The notes beneath the pieces were generated by a model. That model was given only the letters and a program-made list of their open reading frames with translations, made no database searches and was not told the DNA's origin. A stretch of 43,874 bases of DNA, counting the filler, from Catajapyx aquilonaris (lineage: Eukaryota): the NCBI GenBank assembly GCA_000934665.2. It is 2 parts of 2 records of this genome, joined end to end, with 100 filler letters (N's around TTAATTAATTAA, not from the genome) between each part and the next. Parts side by side here need not be neighbours in the genome. Positions count along the whole stretch, not along the records: positions 1 to 21,892 come from KZ539443.1; 1 more part is not named here. The stretch is one strand, 5' to 3'. A program made the position numbers and the translations under genes. Positions 3,020-35,300 of this stretch are shown piece after piece (positions within the stretch are counted from its first letter, which is position 1; each line of letters opens with the position of its first letter).

Positions 3020-3584
3020 ATAAGTTAGCAGTGATAAGCCTCCTTGGGCTTTTTAGGGGATCATCTTTTATTGACCGACTTTAATCATTGCCTGCGCTGT
3101 GATGGATTTTGATTGTGGGAGGTAACGGGAGAACCCGAAGAAAACCCAAGTGATCACGGAGAGAACTCATATCATTGATACTCTAACCACAACCGAAGCA
3201 GGTTGGCATAGTGGATAAGGCGTCCGACTGCTAATCGGGAGGTCCTGGGTTCGAATCCCGGGGCCGGCAACTCTGACCGTGGTTTTCTGTGGTTTCCCAC
3301 GGTCCTTCCAGGAAAATTCCGGAGTTGTTTCCGTAATTAACAGGCCACAGCCGCTTCCTTCTGTCCCTATCCCATCCCAAAAAGTGCAGTAAAATGAAAG
3401 CAAAGAGTTCCAGGCAAAAGAAAACTTCCCCCCTAAAGAGCCGAAAAAGGCTGATAACGGGGTATGAATTAATTAATTATTATTTTACTCTAACCACAAG
3501 CATCCTCTCTCCAATCCGGGGATAAAACTCAGCACCTTAGAGGTGGAAGGCTGTGGCACTAACCACTACACCACTGTGCTGCCC
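3020..3584 (-). mobile_element. tRNA-derived SINE with V/Meta-domain-like core, split by SINE A copy 2
   Basis: Minus-strand head GGGCAGCACAGTGGTGTAGTGGTTAG (A box); core GTTCTCTCCGTGATCACTTGGGTTTTCTTCGGGTTCTCCCGTTACCTCCCACA; flanking 16-bp direct repeat TGCTAAGTTAGCAGTA (3004-3019, 3586-3601). Confidence 0.75.
3193..3485 (+). mobile_element. tRNA-derived SINE, family A, copy 2
   Basis: A box TGGCATAGTGG 3204-3214, B box GGTTCGAATCCC 3248-3259, anticodon-like arm CCGA-CTGCTAA-TCGG, AT-rich tail, TSD TACTCTAACCACAA (3179-3192, 3486-3499). Confidence 0.92.
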
Positions 3585-3793: not shown

Positions 3794-3975
3794 TTGCTGC
3801 AATATATAGGATTTACGAGCCCTGAGTGCCTAGAGCGCTTGGAGGAACCCTTGAACCTCCCAGCAACTGCTCCAGCATCTCTACCTCAGGAAGTAGAAGA
3901 GGACACAATCACCATGCTTCTCAACCAGCGTAACTATGAGTTGGACTACATAAACAAACATGAGCGTGACCCAAG
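3794..3975 (+). CDS. RALGAPA: Ral GTPase-activating protein alpha subunit, internal exon (first in window; gene is 5'-partial)
   Basis: Pyrimidine tract and CAG acceptor at 3791-3793; GTAATG donor at 3976; encodes LLQYIGFTSPECLE...HERDP, resembling RALGAPA LLQYLGVTSPECL; phase 0 to 2. Confidence 0.92.
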
Positions 3976-4059
3976 GTAATGCCATTATTCCATCCTTTAG
4001 CCTTCATTCAGGAAAAGTGCAACATAGCATTTGATGCATAACAATGTGCTTCGTTTTAG

Positions 4060-4234
4060 CCTGGTAGCCCAGTCGCAAAAGCCTATTTGCTCTACAGCAC
4101 CACAATCTCCATTCCAACACTGTCGTCTGCTATTCAACCAACTGGGTCTTGCCAGTTGGGAGCGAAGGAGGCATGTTGATCTACTTTCCAAGAATGAGAA
4201 GCTCCTCAGGGAGCTCAAAAATTTAGACAATCAA
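4060..4234 (+). CDS. RALGAPA: RalGAP alpha internal exon
   Basis: TTTTAG acceptor, GTAAGT donor at 4235; phase 2 to 0 fits both neighbours; encodes ...[12 protein letters not shown]...[15 protein letters not shown]. Confidence 0.93.
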
Positions 4235-5112: not shown

Positions 5113-5411
5113 TTTACATTGTGACTTGAATTCCCCTCCAGTTTTTTGATGAGCAAAAAAATAATGCCTCCTGTTTGGAGGCTGGAAGAGTATTAAAGTT
5201 TGGGGAGGCAAAAGAGGGAGTTCCCATTCTGTCAAGTTAGACTGCTGATGACTATATTGTAATGTGGCTTATCCTTCGATCATATTGGTGAGCATAATTT
5301 ATTGGAACAGCAATAAGTCAAGCCATGGTGTGCCCCAAAATGAAACTTTGTTTGACCTGCAACTACAATTTAAATTTTTGTTCCCAATTTCTTCCTGCTC
5401 AAACCCTGAAG

Positions 5412-5903
5412 AAATGCCGTGAGACTCACAAGATGGCAGTAATCTATGTGGCAGAAGGGCAGGAAGACCGCAATTCCATCTTATGCAACTCTGGAGGGAG
5501 TCAGGCCTATGAAGAATTTGTGGCTGGCTTGGCTTGGGAAGTGGAGTTGGAAACCCACACAGGCTTCATGGGTGGCCTGCACAAGAACAAGAGCACTGGA
5601 GAGACTGCTCCATACTATGCCACCTCTTTCTTGGAAGTGGTCTTCCATGTGGCTACCCGCATGTCGTCTGGAAGTGAGGATGCCATGCTTCAGAAGATGC
5701 GTCACTTGGGTAATGATGAAGTGCATATTGTGTGGTCTGAGCACTCCAGGGATTATCGGAGAGGGGTCATCCCTACCGAGTTCTGTGATGTGTTGCTTGC
5801 CATCTACCCAATGAAGAATGGGCTTTGTCGTGTGCAGGTGTCCAGAAAAGGAGAGGTTCCCTTTTTTGGACCACTCTTTGATGGGGCCATAGTTGACCAG
5901 AAG
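5412..5903 (+). CDS. RALGAPA: RalGAP alpha exon encoding the Rap/Ran-GAP catalytic domain
   Basis: AAG acceptor, GTGGGT donor at 5904; [19 protein letters not shown]...FHVATRM...[17 protein letters not shown]...[11 protein letters not shown]; the HLGND asparagine-thumb motif is typical of Rap1GAP/TSC2/RalGAP. Confidence 0.96.
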
Positions 5904-5989
5904 GTGGGTGCATTGCTTTTGTCGTATTTTGTTCTTCATGGGAAAATTATGTTATTCTGACTTAGTCAAGAATCTCTGGCTTCCTGTAG

Positions 5990-6206
5990 GTGCTTCCAGG
6001 CCTTGTTAGGGCAACAGCTGTAAATGCATCTAGAACCAAGAGAGGAATGCTTCCCTTTTATCAGAACTATTATGAGGAGAGGGCCAAGGCATTGGCAACT
6101 ATTGTGGCCAACCACAGAGAACCCACATCTTTTGAGGATTTTGCTGCTAGTGTTTATGCACCTGTGCAGCCACTTGCCTTTCGGCAAGGACCTACGAGGG
6201 CTTCAG
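5990..6206 (+). CDS. RALGAPA: RalGAP alpha exon, end of GAP domain
   Basis: TGTAG acceptor, GTATGT donor at 6207; [15 protein letters not shown]...YQNYYEERA...[15 protein letters not shown]; phase 0 to 1. Confidence 0.93.
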
Positions 6207-6500
6207 GTATGTAGTGCTCTGGAAGAGTCGCTCTGTTATCAGTAGCAGGTTGTTTCTTACCTAACAATACTCACAGTATGATTTATAGCTTTATTGCAAG
6301 GGAATTTTAGCCTTCCTGTTGTTTTTAAGTGTGATGTGAAATTCAGCATAACATCCTCTTAAGTGTGTGGACATTGCGTGTCGTAATGTGTAATTACATA
6401 TTGAATATGCCAATAAGTTAATCCAATTCATACTTGACAATTTTCCATTATCATTCCATTTAAAAATATTCTCTCTTTATGATCAGGAAGTCGAGATATA

Positions 6501-6728
6501 CATGATGTTCGAAATTCGTGGGTCAGTTTTTATAACTGATATTGCCCAATAGTTATTTTTTGTAGCTTGTGCCCCTAACCCGATGCCCCATTCTATAGCA
6601 ACTGCTATATTCAACCCCCTGGGAGTAATGGGGCACCTGGTTAGGGGCACAACAAGCTACAAAAAATAACTAATATTATCGGTAACATCAGTTATTTAAA
6701 AACCTACCCACGAATTTGGAACACCCTG
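6501..6728. mobile_element. Tc1/mariner-type MITE (CAGGGTGTTCC family), copy 1
   Basis: TA flanks, long imperfect inverted arms; homologous to 12439-12664. Confidence 0.85.
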
Positions 6729-7295
6729 TAGCGAATAGGAATTTGGAAAAAATCAATACAAGATAGGTTTTGGCATGGATCCCAAAAAAATTTCTAAGGT
6801 TGTTAACCCCTTCGAACTCTTCAGCCATATTGCCATCGCCTATGCATGTAGGCAGTGGCAATATGGCTAACATGGCTCATATAGGTGGAGTAAAACATGG
6901 TGGGATATTCCCGTCTGCAAAACTTGACCATCTGGAATCTACAGATGCTACGGGAGCAAAAAAAAAATCCTCCAACATGAATGAGGTGTCAGATAATAAT
7001 ATAGTAAAACCTCGATAACTGGCTTCAGGGGAAGGACACAAAGTAGGATTATAAGCGGGAATTCGTTATATGCAGGAAATGCGATTTAATTCACCCCTTA
7101 CTCAGGAAATGAATATCTGTTGCGATGTAGATGGATGCCTATAAACCATATTTACCAGACGTGACCTGACATAACCTGCCCCCATACCTTGTAGGCCCCC
7201 AAAATATCCCCTGAAGAACTGAAAACTACAATGACTAATCAGGGTCATAGGTCACAAAAACCACCTCTCCATAACTTTCACATGTGCAACTCTTA

Positions 7296-7969
7296 CAAGG
7301 GAACGGTCAGGGTCGAGGACCTCCGATTTGGTTGAAACTGGCTTGAGGGGTCATTCATGTGCGATAGACACAGTGGTGAAAGTGTTAGCTCGCACTATCC
7401 AGCCGTTTCCGAGATATGAACGACAGTAACATCCGAATTTTGGCCACGCGCATTTGCTGGGAGCCGCTCTGCCAGCTCCAAATCCCTTCTACCTTGATTC
7501 CCCCCACTTTTTTCGATCCCACACCACCATCCCCCACTCCCCCACCAAAATTTTGGTTTTCCATAGTTTCTTTGCCCCGGTATTTATTATGAGACCATCA
7601 AGCTGCTTTCTTTCGCTTCTGTCAACTGTGAATAAAGAGCTTCTATACCTAAAATTGGGTAATGGGGAAAACTCATAATAAACACCGGAGCAAAGAAACT
7701 ATGGAAAACGGAAATGTTGGTGGGGGAGTGGGGGATGGTGGTGTGGGATCGAAAAAAGTGGGGGGAATCAAGGTAGAAGGGATTTGGAGCTGGCAGAGCG
7801 GCTCCCAGCAAATGCGCGTGGCCAAAATTCGGATGTTACTGTCACTCATATCTCGGAAACGGCTGGATAGTGCGAGCTAACACTTTCACCACTGTGTCTA
7901 TCGCACATGAATGACCCCTCAAGCCAGTTTCAACCAAATCGGAGGTCCTCGACCCTGACCGTTCCCTTG
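7296..7969. mobile_element. Foldback MITE with 298-bp arms and 78-bp spacer
   Basis: 7296-7593 is a near-perfect inverted copy of 7672-7969; termini CAAGGGAACGG...CCGTTCCCTTG; TTA on both sides. Confidence 0.92.
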
Positions 7970-8351
7970 TTAGTGACAAGGCCCACCGCCTTACACCATC
8001 CCACATGGAAATCCAAAGTGTTTGGAAAAAAATGCCATGTTATTCATCACTTGTTGTTAATTGCTCATGGCTCCCATGCTCCAGACTCCCAATCTGAACG
8101 TCCCCACACCCTTGGCTCTTAGGTCATACTCCGCCAGCACGCAGAAAGCCTATCAGCTCAGCAGTGCTTCCCCGATGTTGCGAGATCACTCGCCAGGCCC
8201 CCTCTTCTCCATCAGTCCGCCCCAGATGGCTTCTCTCTCCCCAAACCTAACATCAAGACCATGTTATGATGCTCCTTTTGATGATATATGCAGGATAAGT
8301 GTCTCTGGGGACTTGGGAAACCGAGCGGGGTATATACAAGAAAGCGTTATA

Positions 8352-10034
8352 CAGGGTGATCAAACTTTTTTGTCATTTTAGTTATTGACAAATTCGGCCT
8401 TAGCTGCTTATATTGTAGCCGTGGCTAGCAACCAGTTGTTGAAATCAGAAATCCGAAGTAACAACAGTTGATATTAGGGATTAAACAACACGAAACAAAT
8501 GAAGATCGATTCCACGGAGTAGTAAGATGGAGGGGAAAGCTCCGTAAGCCGAACGCCAGCTTCCTGGCATTTTTTGTGTCCGGGGCTTAGCAGTTCGCCG
8601 GAAGGCCGCCAGTTGTCGCAACGGTCGCTATTGCTCTAGGATCTGGGAATTTGCGCGTGATTTGAATGGCGAAGCACTGACTGAACCGCTGATTTTGGTG
8701 ATTTAACGGAAATGGCTCGTCCTGAGTTGGACATTTTCGATGTGGATGACAACAGTAGTTATGCGAGCATATTGCCCTGCCGGTCAAGTAGTGGTGACAT
8801 TCCGCACGGAGCATTACACTTCTGGTCAACAGTTTAGCATCACTCCCAAGGAGAGTGTTTTAAATTTATCAAGTTTAAACTTACAGTGCAAATTGAAAGT
8901 GTGCGGTACCGTTGAAAGCGTCGTGAATAACTCTACAAAGCAAAAAAGGAACGGTCACCCTAGGTTCAACAAAGGCGCAGATATTTGCCTATTTTGTTTA
9001 AAAAACATTCTCGAACACCTACAATTTCAACTATGAATATTAATAAATAAAGGTAATCGTCACGAATTGATGCTTTATAATTTTTATTTATGGCAAGAAG
9101 CAAACGCCGAACACAAAAAAATTGCCACAATAATTTTAGAAAGTCATCACTCGAACTGTAATTTTTTAATTTTCGGCATTTCTTCATATATGCACGGTGC
9201 CGAAAATTTTGAAAAATTACAGTTCGCGTGATGAGTTTTTAAAGTTTTTGTGGCAATTTTTTTTGTGTTCGGCGTTTGCTTCTTGCCATAAATAAAAATT
9301 ATAAAGCATCAATTCGTGATGATTACCTTTATTTATTAATATTCATAGTTGAAATTGTAGGTGTTCGAGAATGTTTTTTAAACAAAATAGGCAATATCTG
9401 CGCCTCTGTTGAACCTAGGGTGACCGTTCCTTTTTTGCTTTGTAGAGTTATTCACGACGCTTTCAACGGTACCGCACACTTTCAATTTGCACTGTAAGTT
9501 TAAACTTGCTAAATTTAAAACACTCTCCTTGGGAGTGATGCTAAACTTTTGACCAGTAGTGTAATGCTCCGTGCGTAATGTCACCACTACTTGACCGGCA
9601 GGGCAATATACTCGCATAACTACTGTTGTCATCCACATCGAAAATGTCCAACTCAGGACGAGCCATTTCCGTTAAATCACCAAAATCAGCGGTTCAGTCA
9701 GTACTTCGCCATTCAAATCACGCGCAAATTCCCAGATCCTAGAGCAATAGCGACCGTCGCGACAACTGGCGGCCTTCCGGCGAACTGCTAAGCCCCGGAC
9801 ACAAAAAATGCCAGGCGGCTGAGGCAGGTTTCCCCTCCATCTTACTACTCCGTGTCGATTCGAACAAATTCGACTGCCATTCTTCATTTGTTTCGTGTTG
9901 TTTAATCCCTAATATCAACTGTTGCTATTTCCGATTTCTGATTTCAACAACTGGTTGCTAGCCATGGCTACAATATAAGCAGCTAAGGCCGAATTTGTCA
10001 ATAACTAAAACGACAAAAAAGTTTGATCACCCTG
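8352..10034. mobile_element. Giant foldback Tc1/mariner-type MITE (1683 bp)
   Basis: TA|CAGGGTGATCAAAC ... GTTTGATCACCCTG|TA; arms 8352-9178 and 9198-10034, 19-nt spacer; mirrored ORFs in the ORF track confirm the symmetry. Confidence 0.95.
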
Positions 10035-10638
10035 TATGTGGGAGCATTATATGGAGATTTTACTATATTAAAGATTATATCTACATAGCTGGTATACAGA
10101 GGTCACCTGGGAAAAGAACCCTGGGATTGAAGGGGTTAATACGTATATGCTGCAAAAGGAGTATTTTTCTATTGATTATTGCAATTATGATACTGTAAAA
10201 GTTGTGAAATCCCATTTTATGAAACAATTTTTGCTCAATCATGTTTGTCACGTGGTGAAGGTATTCTTTCAGGTATCTCATCTAATGCCAGTTACGAAAT
10301 GTACTGCTTAACAGGCTTATGGTTGCTGCTGGTAAAAATGCACTGCATCACATCAAACTTGTCTGTTACTGCCTTGAGGAGAGAGAGGCATATGAAGGTC
10401 AGTCATTATGACCAACCACCCTACTTGCCCCATTAATTCTGCTCAGTCATGCTTATGTTCCCTCAAGGAGGTAATAGAGAGACCCAATGTGATGCAGACA
10501 ATTATTTTACCAGTAGCAACTATCCATGTGTCATGCGGCATGTGACAGTAAGGTCTCTTTTTGGCACCCTGTGTGTTTTCCCACTGTTTTGTGTGGAGTG
10601 TGAGAGTTTGTGCATCTCCTGTCTGTTGACCATGGCAG

Positions 10639-10830
10639 GCACGTCATTCTCGTCCCGCTCTGGGGCATCGGAGCAGGCAGGGCTTCTCTTTCACCACACA
10701 TCCAACGTGGCAGCTGCTCTTATTGACCCCCATCCTCTCCCCCCACATTCCCATTCTGCCATGAGGCCAACCATGAGCAGGCTGCTCAGCCTCACCTCCA
10801 CTTCTGCTTCTGCAGAGCCCAAACCCAAAG
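10639..10830 (+). CDS. RALGAPA: RalGAP alpha C-terminal tail exon (Ser/Pro/His-rich)
   Basis: CAG acceptor at 10636-10638, strong AAG|GTAAGT donor; 192 nt, phase 1 to 1, open in the required frame (GTSFSSRSG...AEPKPK). Confidence 0.75.
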
Positions 10831-11432
10831 GTAAGTTTTGTACCCATCACTTGGCATCTAGTTCACAAACCTACAAAACTACCCACACTGTTGCCCAAGA
10901 TCTTTCAATAAGTTATGGTGTAGGATCTAGTAATTAGATATTTTATGAGGAATGGTTATGGTGTGTGCATCAAAAATATTGTGCATGATATTTGGGAAGG
11001 CTAGATTCCCTTTCTAGCTCCTTCATTCCTCTCTACAGAAATGGTTGTAATGGTGTGCTGACTTTCTTTTCCTTTCTTTCTTTTCTTTCTTTTTTCAAAG
11101 GCCAACTAGGTTGAATACCTTATTTCCTTAAGCGCTCTGTGACATTCCCTGGTAAACCCTGAACTAGTAATTAATCCTATATGAATTATGGGGTATCAGC
11201 CACTTGTTCTGGGTTTCTCTCATGCAACCAGCCATAATTGTTGTAGAATTAATTGATATTATGCAGCTAAGGCTGATATGGTTTTTTGATAACCAAGTCT
11301 CAAAGAGATACAGGGTAATCAGTCTTAGTTGCTGCTCTGGCTCCCCCAATGGACCAGGGTGATCAGTTTATTCAACTTGCATATGGGGGCAGTAAATTGA
11401 AGATAATAAAGGCAGGATTTGGTATTGAACTA

Positions 11433-11850
11433 CAGGGTGAATACTGTAACTTTGGCAAAAATCACAGGGTGGGTAGTGTGGACCAAGACAAGTATTTTTG
11501 ACATAGGAACCCATGTCCGGAAATGCCCCCGTACGGGGGTACTGCCGTTTCCCGCACAATATTTGGATGCAGCCAAAGGCCTGAACAACAATCGTTGTTT
11601 GGCTGTTTACATAGCAATTCAAGATCCCAACACAATGACGCATGGTAATAAAATTGTGTCATCCATTAGTTCCATCTTTCATGAATCCTGTAAAATCTGT
11701 GTAACAGAGTTGGCTGACCTTGATCTAATAAAATCCTCCGTTCGGCACTTGACACTAGCAATAATTGTCCACCTTCGTCTCCTCCACACGCGACACACCT
11801 GATGAACGCAAGTTTCGAGTACGGTGGGTTGCCTACCCACCAGGCTCAAC
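11433..11850. mobile_element. Partial, rearranged copy of the 18162-18585 MITE family
   Basis: 11433-11552 matches the left arm; about 11745-11850 matches the spacer and inner right arm of 18162-18585. Confidence 0.8.
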
Positions 11851-12274
11851 CAACTTGTTATGTAAGGTCGTCTCTGATTCGTTGGAGTCATTCTTACTCC
11901 AGCGAATCAGAGACGACATTTTTTGGAGTGATGACGTGTTTTAAGCGGGTTGGGATCTTGAAATGAAAATGGACTGGTCAATCAAAACTCATAGCAGCAC
12001 AGGCAATGATTGAAGTTTGTCATTGAAAAGGAGATTCCCAGGGGGGTGGTTTGCAAATAAATTGAAGGATGAAATATCCAAGACTTCGGTATAATGTCCG
12101 CTTTACCCAGGGACCAAATGGTTAATATCAGAGCAACAGTGAAGTAAGTAGAAATGCAAACATTGCACCTGCCCATTTTTGCATCCAACCACAGCTACAG
12201 GAAGCTGTAGGAATGAGATTCGAGGTGGGGAAGAGGTGGAAATATAAGGGACGCAATCTGGTAGGCCCTCTGTA

Positions 12275-12436
12275 CAGTGTTGGATATTAATTGCGTCGTA
12301 CTGCTTGCAACATTTTCTGAAGCGGCAGAAGAATGAATCTTGCTCGTACGGCTCGTACTATCCATTGCTTAAATTCATTCTTCTGCCGCTACGGAAAATG
12401 TTGCTAGCAGTACGACGAGATTAATGGCCAACACTG
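12275..12436. mobile_element. Palindromic MITE (CAGTGTTGG termini)
   Basis: TA|CAGTGTTGG...CCAACACTG|TA with inverted arms of about 65 bp. Confidence 0.85.
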
Positions 12437-12438
12437 TA

Positions 12439-12664
12439 CAGGGTGTTCCAAATTAGAGGGTCGGTTTTTTCATAACTCTTATCAACTGATAGTAGCTATT
12501 TTTTGTAGCTGCTTGTGCCCCTAACCAGGTGCCCTATTCTATAGCAACTGCCCCTGGGAGTAATGGGGAACCTGGATCTGGGCACAACAAGCTACAAAAA
12601 ATAACTACTTTTGGGTGATTGATATCAGTTTAAAAAAAAATACCCACAAATTTGCAACACCCTG
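12439..12664. mobile_element. Tc1/mariner-type MITE (CAGGGTGTTCC family), copy 2
   Basis: TA|CAGGGTGTTCCAAATT...AATTTGCAACACCCTG|TA; homologous to 6501-6728. Confidence 0.87.
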
Positions 12665-12956
12665 TATATGCAGGGGATTGGTTCCAGGACCTCTGCAGAT
12701 ACCAAAATTTGCAGATGCTCAAGTACCTGATATAAAATAGCATAGTGTATGCACATCCTTCTATATATCATGTCTGGATTACTTATCTACGGATAGGGAG
12801 GGCCCACTGTACCTTAATCCTCTGGCACCCAAATAATTTGCACACATGTAAGAAATTTTTGTGAGAACAGATCACCTTGGTATAGAACTTAATTAGTTTG
12901 TTTTTTAGCAAATGTAAGACAAATGACCAAAGACAAATTTGGAGATGGAATTCATA

Positions 12957-13147
12957 CACTGCTTGAAAAAAAAAAAAGGTCTTGTCCCCCAGCAAGCAGT
13001 GCCAATGCTGGGCAAAGAGTAGATAAGAAGCTTGGTGAATCAACTTGTGCTCATGGAATCAGGTTGCTAGGTTAAGTCACGCACGCTTCCACCTATGCCA
13101 GCATTGGCACTGCTTATAGGGGAACAAAGTAGGTTTTTACAGCACTG
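12957..13147. mobile_element. TA-flanked MITE
   Basis: Inverted AAGCAGTGCCAATGCTGG / CCAGCATTGGCACTGCTT; degenerate CA(C/G)TGCT termini with TA flanks. Confidence 0.7.
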
Positions 13148-13269
13148 TACTGTACTGTACCAGCAACCTACTTGCGTATTTTCAAACTTTTAGTGCAAGG
13201 ACAATTTTATAAACTGAATTACCATAAATATTTGACCATGATAGTTGGCAGTACCCTGAATAAGTTTTA

Positions 13270-13385
13270 GGCCTGATGACCCGGGGTAAGCTATCCCGGG
13301 GGCAATCACCATGGCAGCATATGTAAAAGGATAGCAGTCAACAACCAGTTACCCCAGGGGGCAAGCTACCCCGGGTCACCAGACT
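13270..13385. mobile_element. Short MITE
   Basis: Inverted CTGATGACCCGGGGTA / TACCCCGGGTCACCAG. Confidence 0.65.
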
Positions 13386-13789
13386 ATATACCTTAATGAT
13401 AGTTATTGCATTTTTATTGCCTGTTATTATGAAAACTGGCATCTGCAGAGTTGCTTAGAAATTGATGAGTAGGAGAGGGTAGTTGGAGTAAATCTGGTAA
13501 CATGGCAAGTGATTTAAACGAAATAATTTCTATGCCCATGTTACTATACACTTTGTGGAACATGCGAATGGATAATGTACTGTACATGAAAGCATGAAAC
13601 GAGGTATTTAAACCTCTTTACAAGCTCTGACGGCCCAAGTGAAAACCCAGTATCTTCGAAAATCACGTAAATAGAGATAAATGCACCAATACACTCCTCT
13701 TTGCAAGCCACACCTTTTGGTACAAAACCCATAACTGTAGGAACAACCCTTGCAAAGTTTTGACCAATTGAAATCATCCACTGCCATAT

Positions 13790-14685
13790 CCTCCTGAGAC
13801 CTGGTGTCGACATATGTCGACATCAGCAAAAGATTTTTTTGGCGCCAACCACTGATGCCAACAGAACTGTAATAGGCTGGTACCCCATGGTTACAATCTG
13901 GCCTCAATAGCTGTAGCCACCTAGCGTCGAATATCTGGCTTGGGCCGCGAAAATTAAATCGCGGACAAAATGGCGGATTCCGCTGCTGAAGCTAGGCGCT
14001 CATCTGATCAGTTTTATTTTTTTACTCATATTTAGAATGCGATTTTCGCAATGCAGTGAATGTCCTGGGATTCGCAAGGAATGTGTCTTAGGAACTGCGA
14101 AAAGATGATTCTGTGACAATCTTTGTTGCTGTAGAGAACTGGTCATTTTCTTTTCTTCCTGAGACCAAATGCCCATTTAAATGGACATCCGAAAAATGGC
14201 ATTTTTAGCTGAATGGGTGTGACTTTTCTTTACGTGCCTGTACCTATACACCCATAAGGAAGTGCGCTTTGCACTGTGCACTTCAGTTTTAAAATCTAGA
14301 ATAGCGAAGTACCACTCTAGCGGGTAAGAAGGGAAGGAGCAAGCCCCATCCTTGGAGTGGTTGCGTTCAAAAATAATTTCATTTATCTTTAATTGTCTTC
14401 TGAGAGGAATTGCTACCACGAATACCACAAATAAATTTTAAAAACATTGTTTGGAGGATAGAGCACTATGTGAGTGACCCATTAAGTGGTATTTCAATTT
14501 TCAGCTTTCATCCATTCTGCTTTTGTAGCACCAATTGGGTGCTAATGTTCTCATTGGTTGTTTGTCGCCATTTTTGTCGATATTTTAAAACTAAAATTTT
14601 TTTCTCGTTTCTTATTGGGAACATGTTCAGAAAATGCAATAGGAACTGACATTGCGTTAAAAAATTCGTCTCAGGTCTCAGGAGG
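13790..14685. mobile_element. Non-autonomous DNA transposon with 14-bp perfect TIR and ATAT TSD (piggyBac-like variant)
   Basis: ATAT|CCTCCTGAGACCTG ... CAGGTCTCAGGAGG|ATAT; lies inside an older inverted repeat (about 13622-13655 versus 14746-14781). Confidence 0.85.
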
Positions 14686-16130
14686 ATATACGATAATGGA
14701 AACAAAAAACTTCACAGGTGAATATCTCGAAATGACAAAAAGCGGAGATACAGGGTTTTTTCACTTGGGCCATCAGAGCTACAGCCAAATGTGGGGGTTT
14801 CTTTTTAGGAAGAGTGCAGTCATTTAGGAAGTTGGGCTTCAAATATCACAAAAAAAAATCACTGATTCCAAATGTGATCTCAGGTTTAGTAATGTAGCAA
14901 TAGTAAAATTTTAAGTCAAAGGGAATTTTTTTAAGAAGGTCAGCACCAACCCTTAGCCCCCTAGCAATGAATGAAATAGGCAGCCATGATTCAAGAGAGA
15001 GAAAATTGAACAAAGTAATGCCAAAAGACCAAATATGCTACCGTAGTTCTTCCTCCACGCCAGGCAAATGAGCCATTACACTGACACTGCACTTGATACG
15101 TTCCTGAGGGCTGCAGTAGGTGTTGTAGGAGAGGTGATGCTGTGTTGCTGATACTATCATGGTTTACAACTTAAACATTTGGTCATGCATTACAAACTTT
15201 AAAAACAGACCCATGTTTGGAATCAGTGTTTTTTTCTTATATTCTAGGTCCAACTTGCTGAATAACTTTAAAATGGATCCCCCTTCACATTATCCACTAG
15301 TAAGAAAAAGTCCTTTAGTCCTCAACTGTTTGACTAAGAAAAATGTGATGTTTTTGCAGCACTCTGAAGGGGGTGTTGCTCCACACCCCTCCCTGTGGCG
15401 TAGAGGAGGCATGGGCAGGGGGGAGGGGAAAGAAAGCTATTAATCCCTATGTGTACTGTACCACCTCCTCTGTGGTACAGAGAGAGAGAGAGAGGATCAT
15501 GTGCTCACCTTCATGGTTGTAATGTGATCTTATCATGGCATCTTTCAATGGTCAATCAGTAGCTTGATGTTTTGAAACACACTGTGGTGTAAGGTTAGTG
15601 TAGGTTGTAGCGTAAGTGGAATTAGATGTGAAATATAAGTGGAATAGTAATTCATTGTTTCTGTCTCCCCCCTCAATGAATCTCCCATTTCCCTTTTCTG
15701 TACCCTCCTCAACTTTTTGTTGACCTATCATTCAAGCCACATACATCCAAGACCTGATAATCCTGATGCGTCACGGTAGGTGAGCCCTTCGCTGCCTTGC
15801 GTAGTTGGTGTGTTTAGTGTGGCTGCCATGTATGGAGAGGTACTGTATGGTGCAAGAGGTGTGTTTACCTGTAGCTCAATGGCTTGGCTTTTCAATTTAT
15901 TTATTTTTTGTACTTTTTAACAGTATAGCATGGAGAGCTAAAGTGCAATATGTGATGATCCACCTACAAAGGTTATTTCATCAAATAACTTAGTTATTTT
16001 AAGCTTGGTAAAAGTTTTCCAAATCTAAATTGACATAGGGAAAGGGACCTACATGATTCCAAGCTTTTTCTTGTGACATCCAGTTACAAGCCTTTATGAT
16101 TACAATGTAGGCTACTCCATGTTCCACGTA

Positions 16131-16458: not shown

Positions 16459-16543
16459 NNNNNNNNNNNNNNNNNNNNNNNNNNNNNNNNNNNNNNNNNN
16501 NNNNNNNNNNNNNNNNNNNNNNNNNNNNNNNNNNNNNNNNNNN
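16459..16543. other. Assembly gap in a poly-C tract
   Basis: 85 N between C runs. Confidence 0.98.
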
Positions 16544-17891: not shown

Positions 17892-18161
17892 TATTCCATA
17901 AACTTTTCTTGATAGTTTAACTTTCAGGGGTTACTGCCAGTGACACTGGGTGTGACAAGTATGTTGCTTTGTAAAATATGTTCAACGTAGATGTCAATGA
18001 AGCTATTACATCCCCTCCTGTTTTTATATGTACTCCCGCGAGCATAAAGATGGACTCGGCAGGCCCTTTTTTGACCATTCTTTATCCGACTCAAATTAAT
18101 GAACTCTTTTTGGACTGAGTTAGCTGCTTCAGGCGTGTGTTCGTGTATTTATGACAGTATA

Positions 18162-18585
18162 CAGTGTGGTCACTGTAACTTTGGCGAAAGTCACAGGGTG
18201 GGTAGGGCCCCATAGGCAAGTATTTTGAGCTGAGGTACCCATGTCCGGAAATGCCCCCGTACGGGGGTACGGCCGTTTCCACCTTTGGTCTGTTGCGCCT
18301 GGTGGGTAGGCAACTCATTGTACTCGAAACTTGCGTTCATCAGGTTTTGCACTTGACACTCGCAATTGTTTTCACCTTCGTCTTCTCCACACGCGACACA
18401 CCTAATGAACGCAAGTTTCGAGTACGGTGGGTTGCCTACCCACCAGGCGCAACAGAACAAAGGTGGAAACGGCCGTACCCCTGTACGGGGGCATTTCCGG
18501 ACATGGGTACCGAAGCTCAAAATACTTGCCAATGGGGGCCTCTACCCACCCTGTGATTTTTGCCAGAGTTACCGTGACCACCCTG
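18162..18585. mobile_element. Foldback Tc1/mariner-type MITE, 424 bp
   Basis: TA|CAGTGTGGTCAC ... GTGACCACCCTG|TA; arms about 18162-18345 and 18400-18585. Confidence 0.92.
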
Positions 18586-18825
18586 TATTTGATACTGTAA
18601 TAGCTGAAGTTGGCAGAGCAGCCTGCCGAAGGTGAGGGCCTGCCGTGTCCATATTTATGCTCGCAGGTGTACATTTATCACTGTCATTCACATACACTGG
18701 GCCATAATTGAGGGGGAAATGTTTCTACAACTTCATTCACTACAGTTGATATTATTAACATCCTATCATGAGAGTTCTAATCTCAGGCTGAATGCGTAAC
18801 AGGAAGGCACCCTGTTAGGAAGCAG

Positions 18826-19097: not shown

Positions 19098-19930
19098 TCT
19101 GGAAAAAATAACTTTGAGTCAGAGGGTGGGGGAATAGCAAAAGGTTTCGTTAATGTTTACAGGAACAGTGGGGAAGAAGCCATAATAAATCTGGCAACAG
19201 TTACTGCAATAGCAGAACCATGCTTGAAAGCAGTTTTTGTTGCAAATTGATCATAAGTCATTGGATCCCCTGAATTATCACCTTGTTAGTTCCTTGTGTA
19301 GGATCACTGGAGAAGGGTGGGGAGATGTCCACACCTATTAAGCAGTGATTTGAATTTTTCTCACTTGTAGAGAGAGGGAGGGAGGGAGGGAGAGAGAGTG
19401 GAAAAAGCCTTAGTCAGAGTGGCGACTGCTGTGATCCAGGCAGCAGTACTAAAAACTTGTAGGAAAAAAAAGTCTCTATCTGACCTCTCAGATTGTAAAC
19501 TTACACACATAAACACAAACATAAACTTACAACATAGGCTCTAGGAAACCGTAAGAATATCATAGCCCAAGGGCTTCTGGAACAGGAGTAGCCAACAATG
19601 GTTTTAATTCTAGTGAACAGCATATTATCAAGCAGTAATTTTTTGTTCATTGATAAAAGCAGTTAGTTTCTGCCTAACCAATTCCTATATGGCCCGTGAT
19701 CTGTTAGGTTTTTCTGATTTGTCTAAGTTGTAAGGAATGTAAAGGACATTTTTGCCTTACGTTCACATCAGGATGCTACTGTTGGGTGGATTTTAAGTGC
19801 CCCCTAGAGAGATGAAAGGTAATAATTTTAAAACCTCAGGAGAGAACAAATTTTGCTATGAAACTTGGAGTAGTCCTTCACTCTTGAGAGAGAAAAATCA
19901 TTTGACCTTCTCCCACTTTCTTTGCAACAG

Positions 19931-20112
19931 TGTCCGAATCGAGTGGCAGCAACTTGGAGAACCAAGCAGCTCCTCTTCAGCCTCCTCCCAGTGTGTCATC
20001 TCCAAAAGCCCCAAAGCGTCTGTCATTCAAGTCAAGCAGTCGGAGCAAGGCTAGTGTGGCTGCACCTACTTCTCCTCCAGACAGCCCTTCAGTTGTGCAC
20101 AGGCACAAATGA
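19931..20112 (+). CDS. RALGAPA: RalGAP alpha terminal coding exon
   Basis: Pyrimidine tract and CAG acceptor at 19928-19930; phase 1 entry gives VSESSGS...SPKAPKRLSFK...SPPDSPSVVHRHK then TGA at 20110-20112; followed by AT/GT-rich UTR-like DNA. Confidence 0.75.
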
Positions 20113-32370: not shown

Positions 32371-35300
32371 CTTCGAGGCACCTACCGTGTGTGTTATATT
32401 TATAAAAACGTCTTTCTCAACCGCGTGTGTACGCACAACATGCTCGGAAGGTGGCGCCATCTCCAAGTCTGCTGATGGCTGTAAAATACCTCAGAGTTGG
32501 AAATTTGCGTTGGTAATTTTTGGAGACTACAGCATGGAGGAAGAGCCGTTTTGAGGGCACAAAGGGGTGCGGGACAAGTGCGCACAATCGTCCAAAATTA
32601 TTCCCAATCGGCTTGGCCCGGGCCATCTTATTCCCACAGCCAGAAAAGAGGAAGCCGCAGAACACAGAACGGGAAATGAACAAGTTGCCTCCAGAGACAG
32701 GCACCGGCAAGAAGGGGGTTTTGGAAAGGGAAAAAACAAGCGGCATTGTTGGACCCTAATTTACTCCTAGCTCTTTGAAGGAACTGGACAAAAATTGTCA
32801 ATATGCAAAAAAAAAAAAAGAAGTTGGCTCATCATTTTTTTGGGGCGATGACAAGTGTCGGCAGAAATTATGAAACGGTGGACCTTGTCGTCGGCATCTG
32901 ATGGGCGGCGACTCTGGTTTGTTTACATATCATGCCAGTTAGCAATTTCAGCAACTCATTCCGAGTAGGGGGAAGACCTCATGCGGACAGTGAATTGCAG
33001 ATTTTTTTTATTCCGCAGGACAAGCTGATTTATCGCTTCAAGATGTGTGGTGTTTTTGTGTTTCCCATTGAGCAGACGGCCGCTTTTGTTATGAAAATAA
33101 GCGCGAGTGTGAATGGCGCCTGTGTGTCTATGGAAGGGAGAGCATTAAGAGTGTTATTGCGTGTAACTGATATGCCAATAAGGCGTCGCATTAATTTGTA
33201 ATGACTCCTGAAATTAACTGCAAAGGTCGTAGTAATTACCAATTAAATTCCTGTTCTTCATTGCGTCGCCTTAGATAAAAAAAAGTGTAATGACACTGTT
33301 GGATAATACTTGTCATCCAAAGTTGTGAACACTCCTATAATTAACTGATAATATTACATTGCACGCATAAAAATAATAAACCGGAAACTTAAGCCGGCAC
33401 GGTTGTATGGACACGTCATGTCGAGACAATAATTATTTCCGATTACGTATTAAGGACACCCACATAATAATATTTTATGCCCATACACAACATGTGTGAT
33501 GACATAATGTGCTTACACAAATTAAGAATTTCTTAAATTATACGTATAGGAGTGTCTACATAATCAGAGTATGTCTCACAATCTGAGTTACAGTAATACA
33601 GCCAGATGTCTCATTCTATTTTTGAGGATGAGAAAAATAATATCGTCATATATACGGTTCAAGAATTACGGATGGATCAAATACCTGAAATTTACTTGTG
33701 ATGTGGTAGAAGGTGGACGATTGCGAATGTCAACAATGTGTAATTACGTGTGCTATATAACTTGGCTCAACTTGGCATAAATATTTGTTTGGCCCAGTAT
33801 AGGCAGCTTATTGTTGGCCACTTGTTGGAACACCCTGTGCATTTACTACATTACTACCGAGTTTGTGCGAAGATTTAAGGGCGGAGTGAAACGAAAAGGT
33901 GGAGCGTATACGAATAATCCTATAGGTGTTTCGATAGTAGTCCTCCTGCGCATGAGAGTTCTATGGAAAGGGGGGGGGGGAAAGGGGGGGGGAAGGATAT
34001 AGGCCTAGAGGGGGTTTGGCCCCCCCTAATCTAACGCCCGACCTAATAACTATATCGTATAACTTTATGACNGGGGGGAAAGGGGGGGAAGGATATAGGC
34101 CTAGAGGGGGTTTGGCCCCCCCTAATCTAACGCCCGACCTAATAACTATATCGTATAACTTTATGACGCTTTTGAAAAATGTAGCGCTGCCATTTCAGGG
34201 CAATTCAGCGAGGAACAATGGCCCATAGCCCGGCATCAAAAAGACCTGATAAGCTGATATCGAATTAGAATAACGATCTAATTTCCATACAAAAGGCACA
34301 CTTAAAGCGAAGCGGGGCGATGGAATGGCAGCACCACCACCAGCAGCATCCAAAAAATCGGGCTTCAACCATCCCTCCCCCTTTCCTCTCCCGTCATCCC
34401 TTTTTTTTAAGAGGAAGAAGGGAGATGCGTCCAGATGATGATGATGCTTGAGGAGGTAAATGGGAAAAAGGAATCGAGGAAGAAAACACACCTTTTAGTC
34501 CATGATTCTTCTCTCTCACCCCGGTAATTTTTTGCGCCATATTTCCTTCTGGCTCAGATAATTGGTTTCCACATGTCGACTCTAGGAATCAGATAGACGT
34601 CATGCTGCTTGTCAGGGTCCTCTGACCAACAACCCCCCCACCCCCTCAACCCTTCCAACCCAACAACCTCTCCTGCTTCCTGCATCTGCACTGCAATTTG
34701 GCGCAATCATTATCATATTACTTTCACACCTTGCTACCGGCTAACGTTATATGTGATGGGATTACAGCAAGATGCGTCTAAAGGCTGACGTACAAAACTT
34801 GTAAAAAAATGAATGTCCATTGCATTTGCATAACATAAGGCATTGCTGGCAGCTTATTTCTGACATCACGTGTCGAGTACACTTGAGAACTAAGAGAAGT
34901 GCACCGGCATCTGAGACGTGAAGTGACCGCAGCAGCAGCATCAAACAGACCCTTTGGCTTTGTGGTCGACACGGGCATGAAAAGAGCGGCCAGTGAAGTG
35001 TTAATTAGTCGGAAAAAGCGGAACAACCAACCGTTTGGATATGGGAGGGACCCAGTGGGGGGGTTTGGGTTGTATGATCATAATATACAGATGCTGATCT
35101 TTATAGTGGTGTGTACAAAGCCCCAAACGCGACCTGTTTAACACTGCAAATGGCAGCAGGATCTGATGATCGGAACAGGTTCGGCATCGGGTCCAGCCAG
35201 CATCACCCATGCAGTGTGGGACAAGCGAATAATAATCAGCGGCGTATATACAGTGTAAAAATTGGTGGGCCAAATGATGGGTGTTTTTGAAGCCCCCCTC

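Follow-up and report, generated by a model that had tools for sequence, protein, structure and literature searches.

We identified a dead, non-autonomous relic of a Tigger-type transposon in an intron of the RalGAP-alpha gene of Catajapyx aquilonaris. The element is 159 bp long once the two MITEs inserted into it are removed, and for genome annotation the stretch is three nested dead MITEs in one intron. On the strength of a putative likeness to MER2, the element probably belongs to the Tigger2/MER2 lineage, which would have come to arthropods and to mammals through horizontal transfer, whether direct or not. We put the probability of this reading at about 55%. The stretch of DNA that was analysed (the window) is 43,874 nt long and was taken from assembly GCA_000934665.2. 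It consists of two records joined by 100 Ns, and positions 1-21,892 come from KZ539443.1.

The region 11900-13200 was re-read, and the letters of the window quoted in an earlier note on this DNA are present exactly as given. The same note had described two inserted MITEs, and both were seen, with TA on either side of each. On the plus strand, the outer element begins with a decayed 5' terminus of 14 bp (12259-12272), followed by the TA of its own that served as the target for insertion (12273-12274). The first nested MITE (12275-12436, 162 bp) has the ends CAGTGTTGG.../...CCAACACTG and arms of 69 nt that are 90% complementary; when its first 60 positions are set against the reverse complement of its last 60, 53 pair. 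A second copy of this MITE was not found within the window. A TA at 12437-12438 separates it from the second nested MITE (12439-12664, 226 bp), the ends of which are CAGGGTGTT.../...AACACCCTG. Its arms are shorter and less well preserved (34 nt, 82%), with 34 of 60 terminal positions pairing in an ungapped comparison and 9-nt perfect ends. A second, TA-flanked copy of this MITE lies in a different intron of RalGAP-alpha (6499-6730; 77% identity, E 2.9e-46). The third TA (12665-12666) adjoins the 3' part of the element (12667-12809, 143 bp, plus strand), which carries short repeats near the 5' end, together with the 3' terminal repeat. A further TA, the target-site duplication at the 3' edge, occupies 12810-12811. 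Three TAs around two inserts are the pattern expected when TA-targeting elements insert twice, one after the other, into a single TA. The restored outer element reads 12259-12272 + TA + 12667-12809. No second copy of the outer element is present in the window, where the sole other match is 20 nt long (E 0.70).

The two ends of the element are unequally preserved. Reverse-complemented, the 3' end begins CAGTGGGCCCTC, a CAGTG... terminus; it is followed by TA. At the 5' edge, the expected target-site duplication (12257-12258) reads TC rather than TA, the flank ending in ...caatc before the element; one substitution would explain the TC. When the 5' terminus is compared with the reverse-complemented 3' end, 12 of 15 positions pair in the best local alignment, a score that was reached by 58 of 2000 shuffles; by this measure the inverted repeat of the element is weak. 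This weakness and the missing 5' TA are what could be said for the view that there is no transposon at all, and that ordinary intron DNA was struck by two MITEs and resembles a Tigger terminus and MER2 by chance. The interior of the element speaks against that view. The restored element contains 32 8-mer repeats (at most one mismatch), while shuffled versions have a mean of 8.4 and none of 300 reached 32. Related 8-mers are found at 12665-12673, 12692-12702 and 12707-12718, adjoining the 5' end of the element, and an inverted pair lies within it at 12725-12737 and 12759-12773. Next to the ends is the usual place for extra transposase-binding sites in cut-and-paste transposons. In addition, the 3' end fits the published terminal-repeat type of Tiggers and is followed by TA, and the match to MER2 described below, provided that the quoted strings are correct, would greatly exceed what chance can give. 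We consider a chance origin highly improbable. The Tigger-type assignment made previously is supported: the element is a TA-inserting, CAGT-ended, non-coding relic of the pogo/Tigger kind.

The element is short and non-coding, and the window holds no transposase gene: none of its 210 open reading frames of at least 70 aa matches any Pfam transposase family. A search of 12200-12900 against Rfam at E values up to 10 gave eight weak matches, none at the gathering score and none that explains the element; among the Rfam models, the CPEB3 ribozyme scored 18.4 bits in this region against the 35 needed. In viral contigs, a 17-mer of the element was found at seven loci, each matching over 17-19 nt only, in a collection that is poor in animal DNA. 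A 21-nt pattern of the 3' end (with two Ns) was found at three loci of 21-23 nt in metagenome contigs, which look bacterial, and at one locus of 23 nt in prokaryote genomes, in a Pirellula MAG; both collections hold little animal DNA. The matches in these three collections are chance hits, and the blanks are weak evidence against relatives of the element. Full-text search for strings of the element found no paper that contains them.

Exons of RalGAP-alpha lie in order on both sides of the element, which therefore sits between two exons of this gene. Only one of the 210 open reading frames matches Pfam, namely to Rap_GAP (E 3.4e-43, at 5298-5957). In a protein search with the Rap_GAP exon, the best 39 of the 120 homologues listed were all arthropod RalGAP-alpha proteins with 72-80% identity, and the first non-arthropod in the list was a scallop at rank 40. 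By tblastn with four arthropod homologues, three collinear exons were placed on the plus strand at 3794-4234, 5409-5906 and 5990-6226, the middle one with 75-79% identity. The C-terminal tails of ten homologues, which are less conserved, match two more sites, again in the order expected for the gene. Upstream of the element, a probable further exon (10635-10835, plus strand) is matched by the tails of four homologues (P0011, P0020, P0027 and P0033; E 0.002 to 0.13). Downstream of it, the probable last coding exon (19921-20094, plus strand) is matched by the tails of six (P0007, P0009, P0018, P0019, P0028 and P0033; E 8e-4 to 0.1), with a common SPKxxKRLSFK...PPDSP motif. No RNA run is among the sequencing runs listed as containing 11800-13300.

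The introns of this gene are rich in other foldback elements. Three long, almost perfect palindromes were observed in them, at 7292-7973, 8349-10037 and 18159-18588 (90%, 92.6% and 84% self-complementary). They are foldback or long-TIR elements, one family being present in two copies, and a relative lies at 11428-11850. Elsewhere in the window, a sequence resembling tRNA-Ser(GCT) was detected at 3198-3269 by ARAGORN and by the Rfam tRNA model (39.7 bits), the only Rfam match at the gathering score. It lies inside a 290-bp repeat (3189-3477) of which a second copy is found at 2553-2855 (81.6% identity), and this repeat looks like a tRNA-derived SINE family and not a tRNA gene. Two 97-bp copies of 98% identity (33975-34071 and 34073-34167) directly flank a single N and are probably an assembly artefact at the gap.

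Resemblance to a mammalian repeat raises the question of whether mammalian DNA entered the assembly through contamination or misjoining. The sole basis for this suspicion is the putative likeness itself. The earlier note had argued against it from the nested host MITEs and from the intronic position, and both arguments hold: two MITEs lie inside the element, one of them from a family with another copy beside arthropod exons, and RalGAP-alpha exons with arthropod best matches flank the element collinearly on both sides. Nor is there an assembly gap nearby, since no run of Ns occurs between 10.6 kb and 16.4 kb and the first is at 16459. Four DNA sequencing runs contain 86-92% of the words sampled from 11800-13300, an interval that takes in the flanks. 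All four belong to a single sample and a single study, which may be those behind the assembly itself, and they are not independent. Contamination is therefore very unlikely, given the arthropod exons on both sides, the absence of a nearby gap and a nested MITE with a copy in another intron. The nested MITEs, the collinear exons and the loss of CpG sites all count for a long residence of the Tigger-type element in its host.

This loss of CpG is pronounced. The element has one CpG only (observed/expected 0.13), compared with ratios of 0.42 in the surrounding 10001-15000 and 0.62 in the whole window. The latter two values are themselves low for many arthropods, and the low CpG around the element would fit germline DNA methylation of the gene body.

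The MER2 strings to which the element was compared in the earlier note are taken here as an assumption. Counted by eye and without gaps, the element agrees with these strings over 32 of 41, 41 of 47 and 17 of 19 bases, a total of 90 of 107, and this agreement serves as a lead only. The element presumably tracks MER2 across its first ~150 bases, apart from a small deletion, and resumes at the last ~20. Its length of 159 bp is roughly half that of MER2, which implies an internal deletion. It was also proposed that many of the differences are due to CpG decay. This holds only in part: counted by eye, ~3 to 5 of the 17 mismatches fit that type, although the element is very poor in CpG. MER2 and MER2B share with the element a short, non-coding body, a TA target and CAGT-type ends, together with ~84% identity over the strings assumed for MER2. 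They differ from it in host, being non-autonomous Tigger2 derivatives of placental mammals, whereas the element described here is in an arthropod.

The "Tigger2" in the tree of Dupeyron et al. 2020 carries the label NP_663761.1_Tigger2_Homo_sapiens, a human protein accession (PMC7325037). This accession presumably stands for a Tigger-derived host gene and not for the transposon, so that clade 40 of that tree would have no bearing on MER2. MER2, MER2B and TIGGER2 are listed by Kojima 2018 under Mariner/Tc1, the Repbase class (PMC5753468). Tigger2 in mammals has been dated to more than 100 Ma by Hellen and Brookfield (PMC3525145).

The main rival to membership in the Tigger2/MER2 lineage is that the element is a native arthropod MITE of the Tigger family, with a resemblance to MER2 made up of features common to all Tiggers (CAGT...CCCTC...TAT ends and a TA target), so that no transfer would be needed. 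Published data give this explanation some footing. Diaby et al. 2022 report Tigger elements from 155 species of arthropods in 19 orders (PMC9219625). Table S1 of that paper prints CAGT[CG]..CCCTC..TAT.. terminal repeats with TA duplications for Tiggers of spiders, ants, bees, a prawn and a sponge (PMC9219625). The Tiggers of Stegodyphus, Cataglyphis, Tetragonula and Amphimedon listed there have the same terminal-repeat type and TA duplication as the element, as Pandalus has the terminal-repeat type, and the Amphimedon motif agrees with the 3' repeat of the element at 18 of 23 positions by eye, with one gap (PMC9219625). Since the same type of terminal repeat occurs in Tiggers of arthropods and of a sponge, the terminal repeat alone would not tie the element to mammals. 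The internal likeness to MER2, for its part, is putative. Two observations weigh on the other side. The first is the 41/47 match to the assumed MER2 strings, which lies well inside the element, beginning ~40 bases in from its tip. The second, which counts equally against the Tigger2/MER2 reading itself, is that the core of the element's terminal repeat, GGCCCTC[CT] or CAGTGGGC, was not found in any motif of Table S1, and in the supplement of 383 elements all matches were in coding-sequence files (PMC9219625). The four Tiggers named above, unlike the element, are coding and 2-3.5 kb long, and none has the GGCCCTC core in its printed motif (PMC9219625). We regard a purely native origin as possible but doubtful, and favour membership in the Tigger2/MER2 lineage. 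Also against that membership are the weak inverted repeat and the missing 5' TA.

Pandalus platyceros is a prawn. In row 167 of Table S1 it is filed under Insecta, Lepidoptera (PMC9219625). It corresponds to "Papl" in the tree of the same paper, the text of which lists human TIGGER2 and the carnivore Tigger2f next to this prawn entry, along with nematodes that are parasitic and a turtle, in an order taken from the text of the PDF and not from the figure (PMC9219625). Table S1 gives the Pandalus element, which lies in SKFP01000064.1, a length of 2750 bp, a protein of 522 aa, a 22-bp terminal repeat and a TA target-site duplication, and in the trimmed alignment rows TIGGER2 and Papl share 111 of 152 residues by eye (PMC9219625). 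Like the element in C. aquilonaris, the Pandalus Tigger has an arthropod host and ends that start with CAGT and contain CCCT...TAT; it differs in being autonomous, in having 17 times the length and in a printed terminal repeat that departs at many positions (PMC9219625). Diaby et al. report a single inter-phylum case, namely Tigger transfers between Eutheria and arthropods (PMC9219625). Because such transfers have already been claimed in print, the surprise of the present observation is tempered (PMC9219625).

The following history would account for the nested locus. The element may have been moved in trans by an enzyme that we infer to be a Tigger transposase, with a CENP-B-type DNA-binding domain and a DDE catalytic domain, which would recognise the terminal inverted repeats together with the adjoining short repeats and insert at TA. 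A copy would then have landed in the intron of the host RalGAP-alpha gene and decayed there, at its 5' tip and its CpG sites. Later, two unrelated host MITEs probably struck one internal TA, one after the other, and the element is now presumably without function in the host. If the likeness to MER2 extends over the whole length, as is probable, the two would belong to a single transposon lineage that reached distantly related animals through horizontal transfer, with no need for a direct passage from mammal to this arthropod or back. It is a more far-reaching proposal, and an unlikely one, that this arthropod lineage has a close relative, with a near-identical non-coding consensus, of the same Tigger2/MER2 family that entered early placental mammals more than 100 million years ago, and that arthropods, or parasites moving between them and vertebrates, were the source or vector of what is among the commonest DNA transposon families in humans.

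The phenomenon itself is in print, as Tigger is widespread in arthropods and transfers involving Eutheria have been claimed, so that the present element would refine the known picture and not change it. If its likeness to MER2 holds at the level of the consensus, the element would add a dated, non-coding case to the transposon lineages that arthropods have in common with mammals, and it may aid in tracing the origin of the mammalian Tigger2/MER2 burst.
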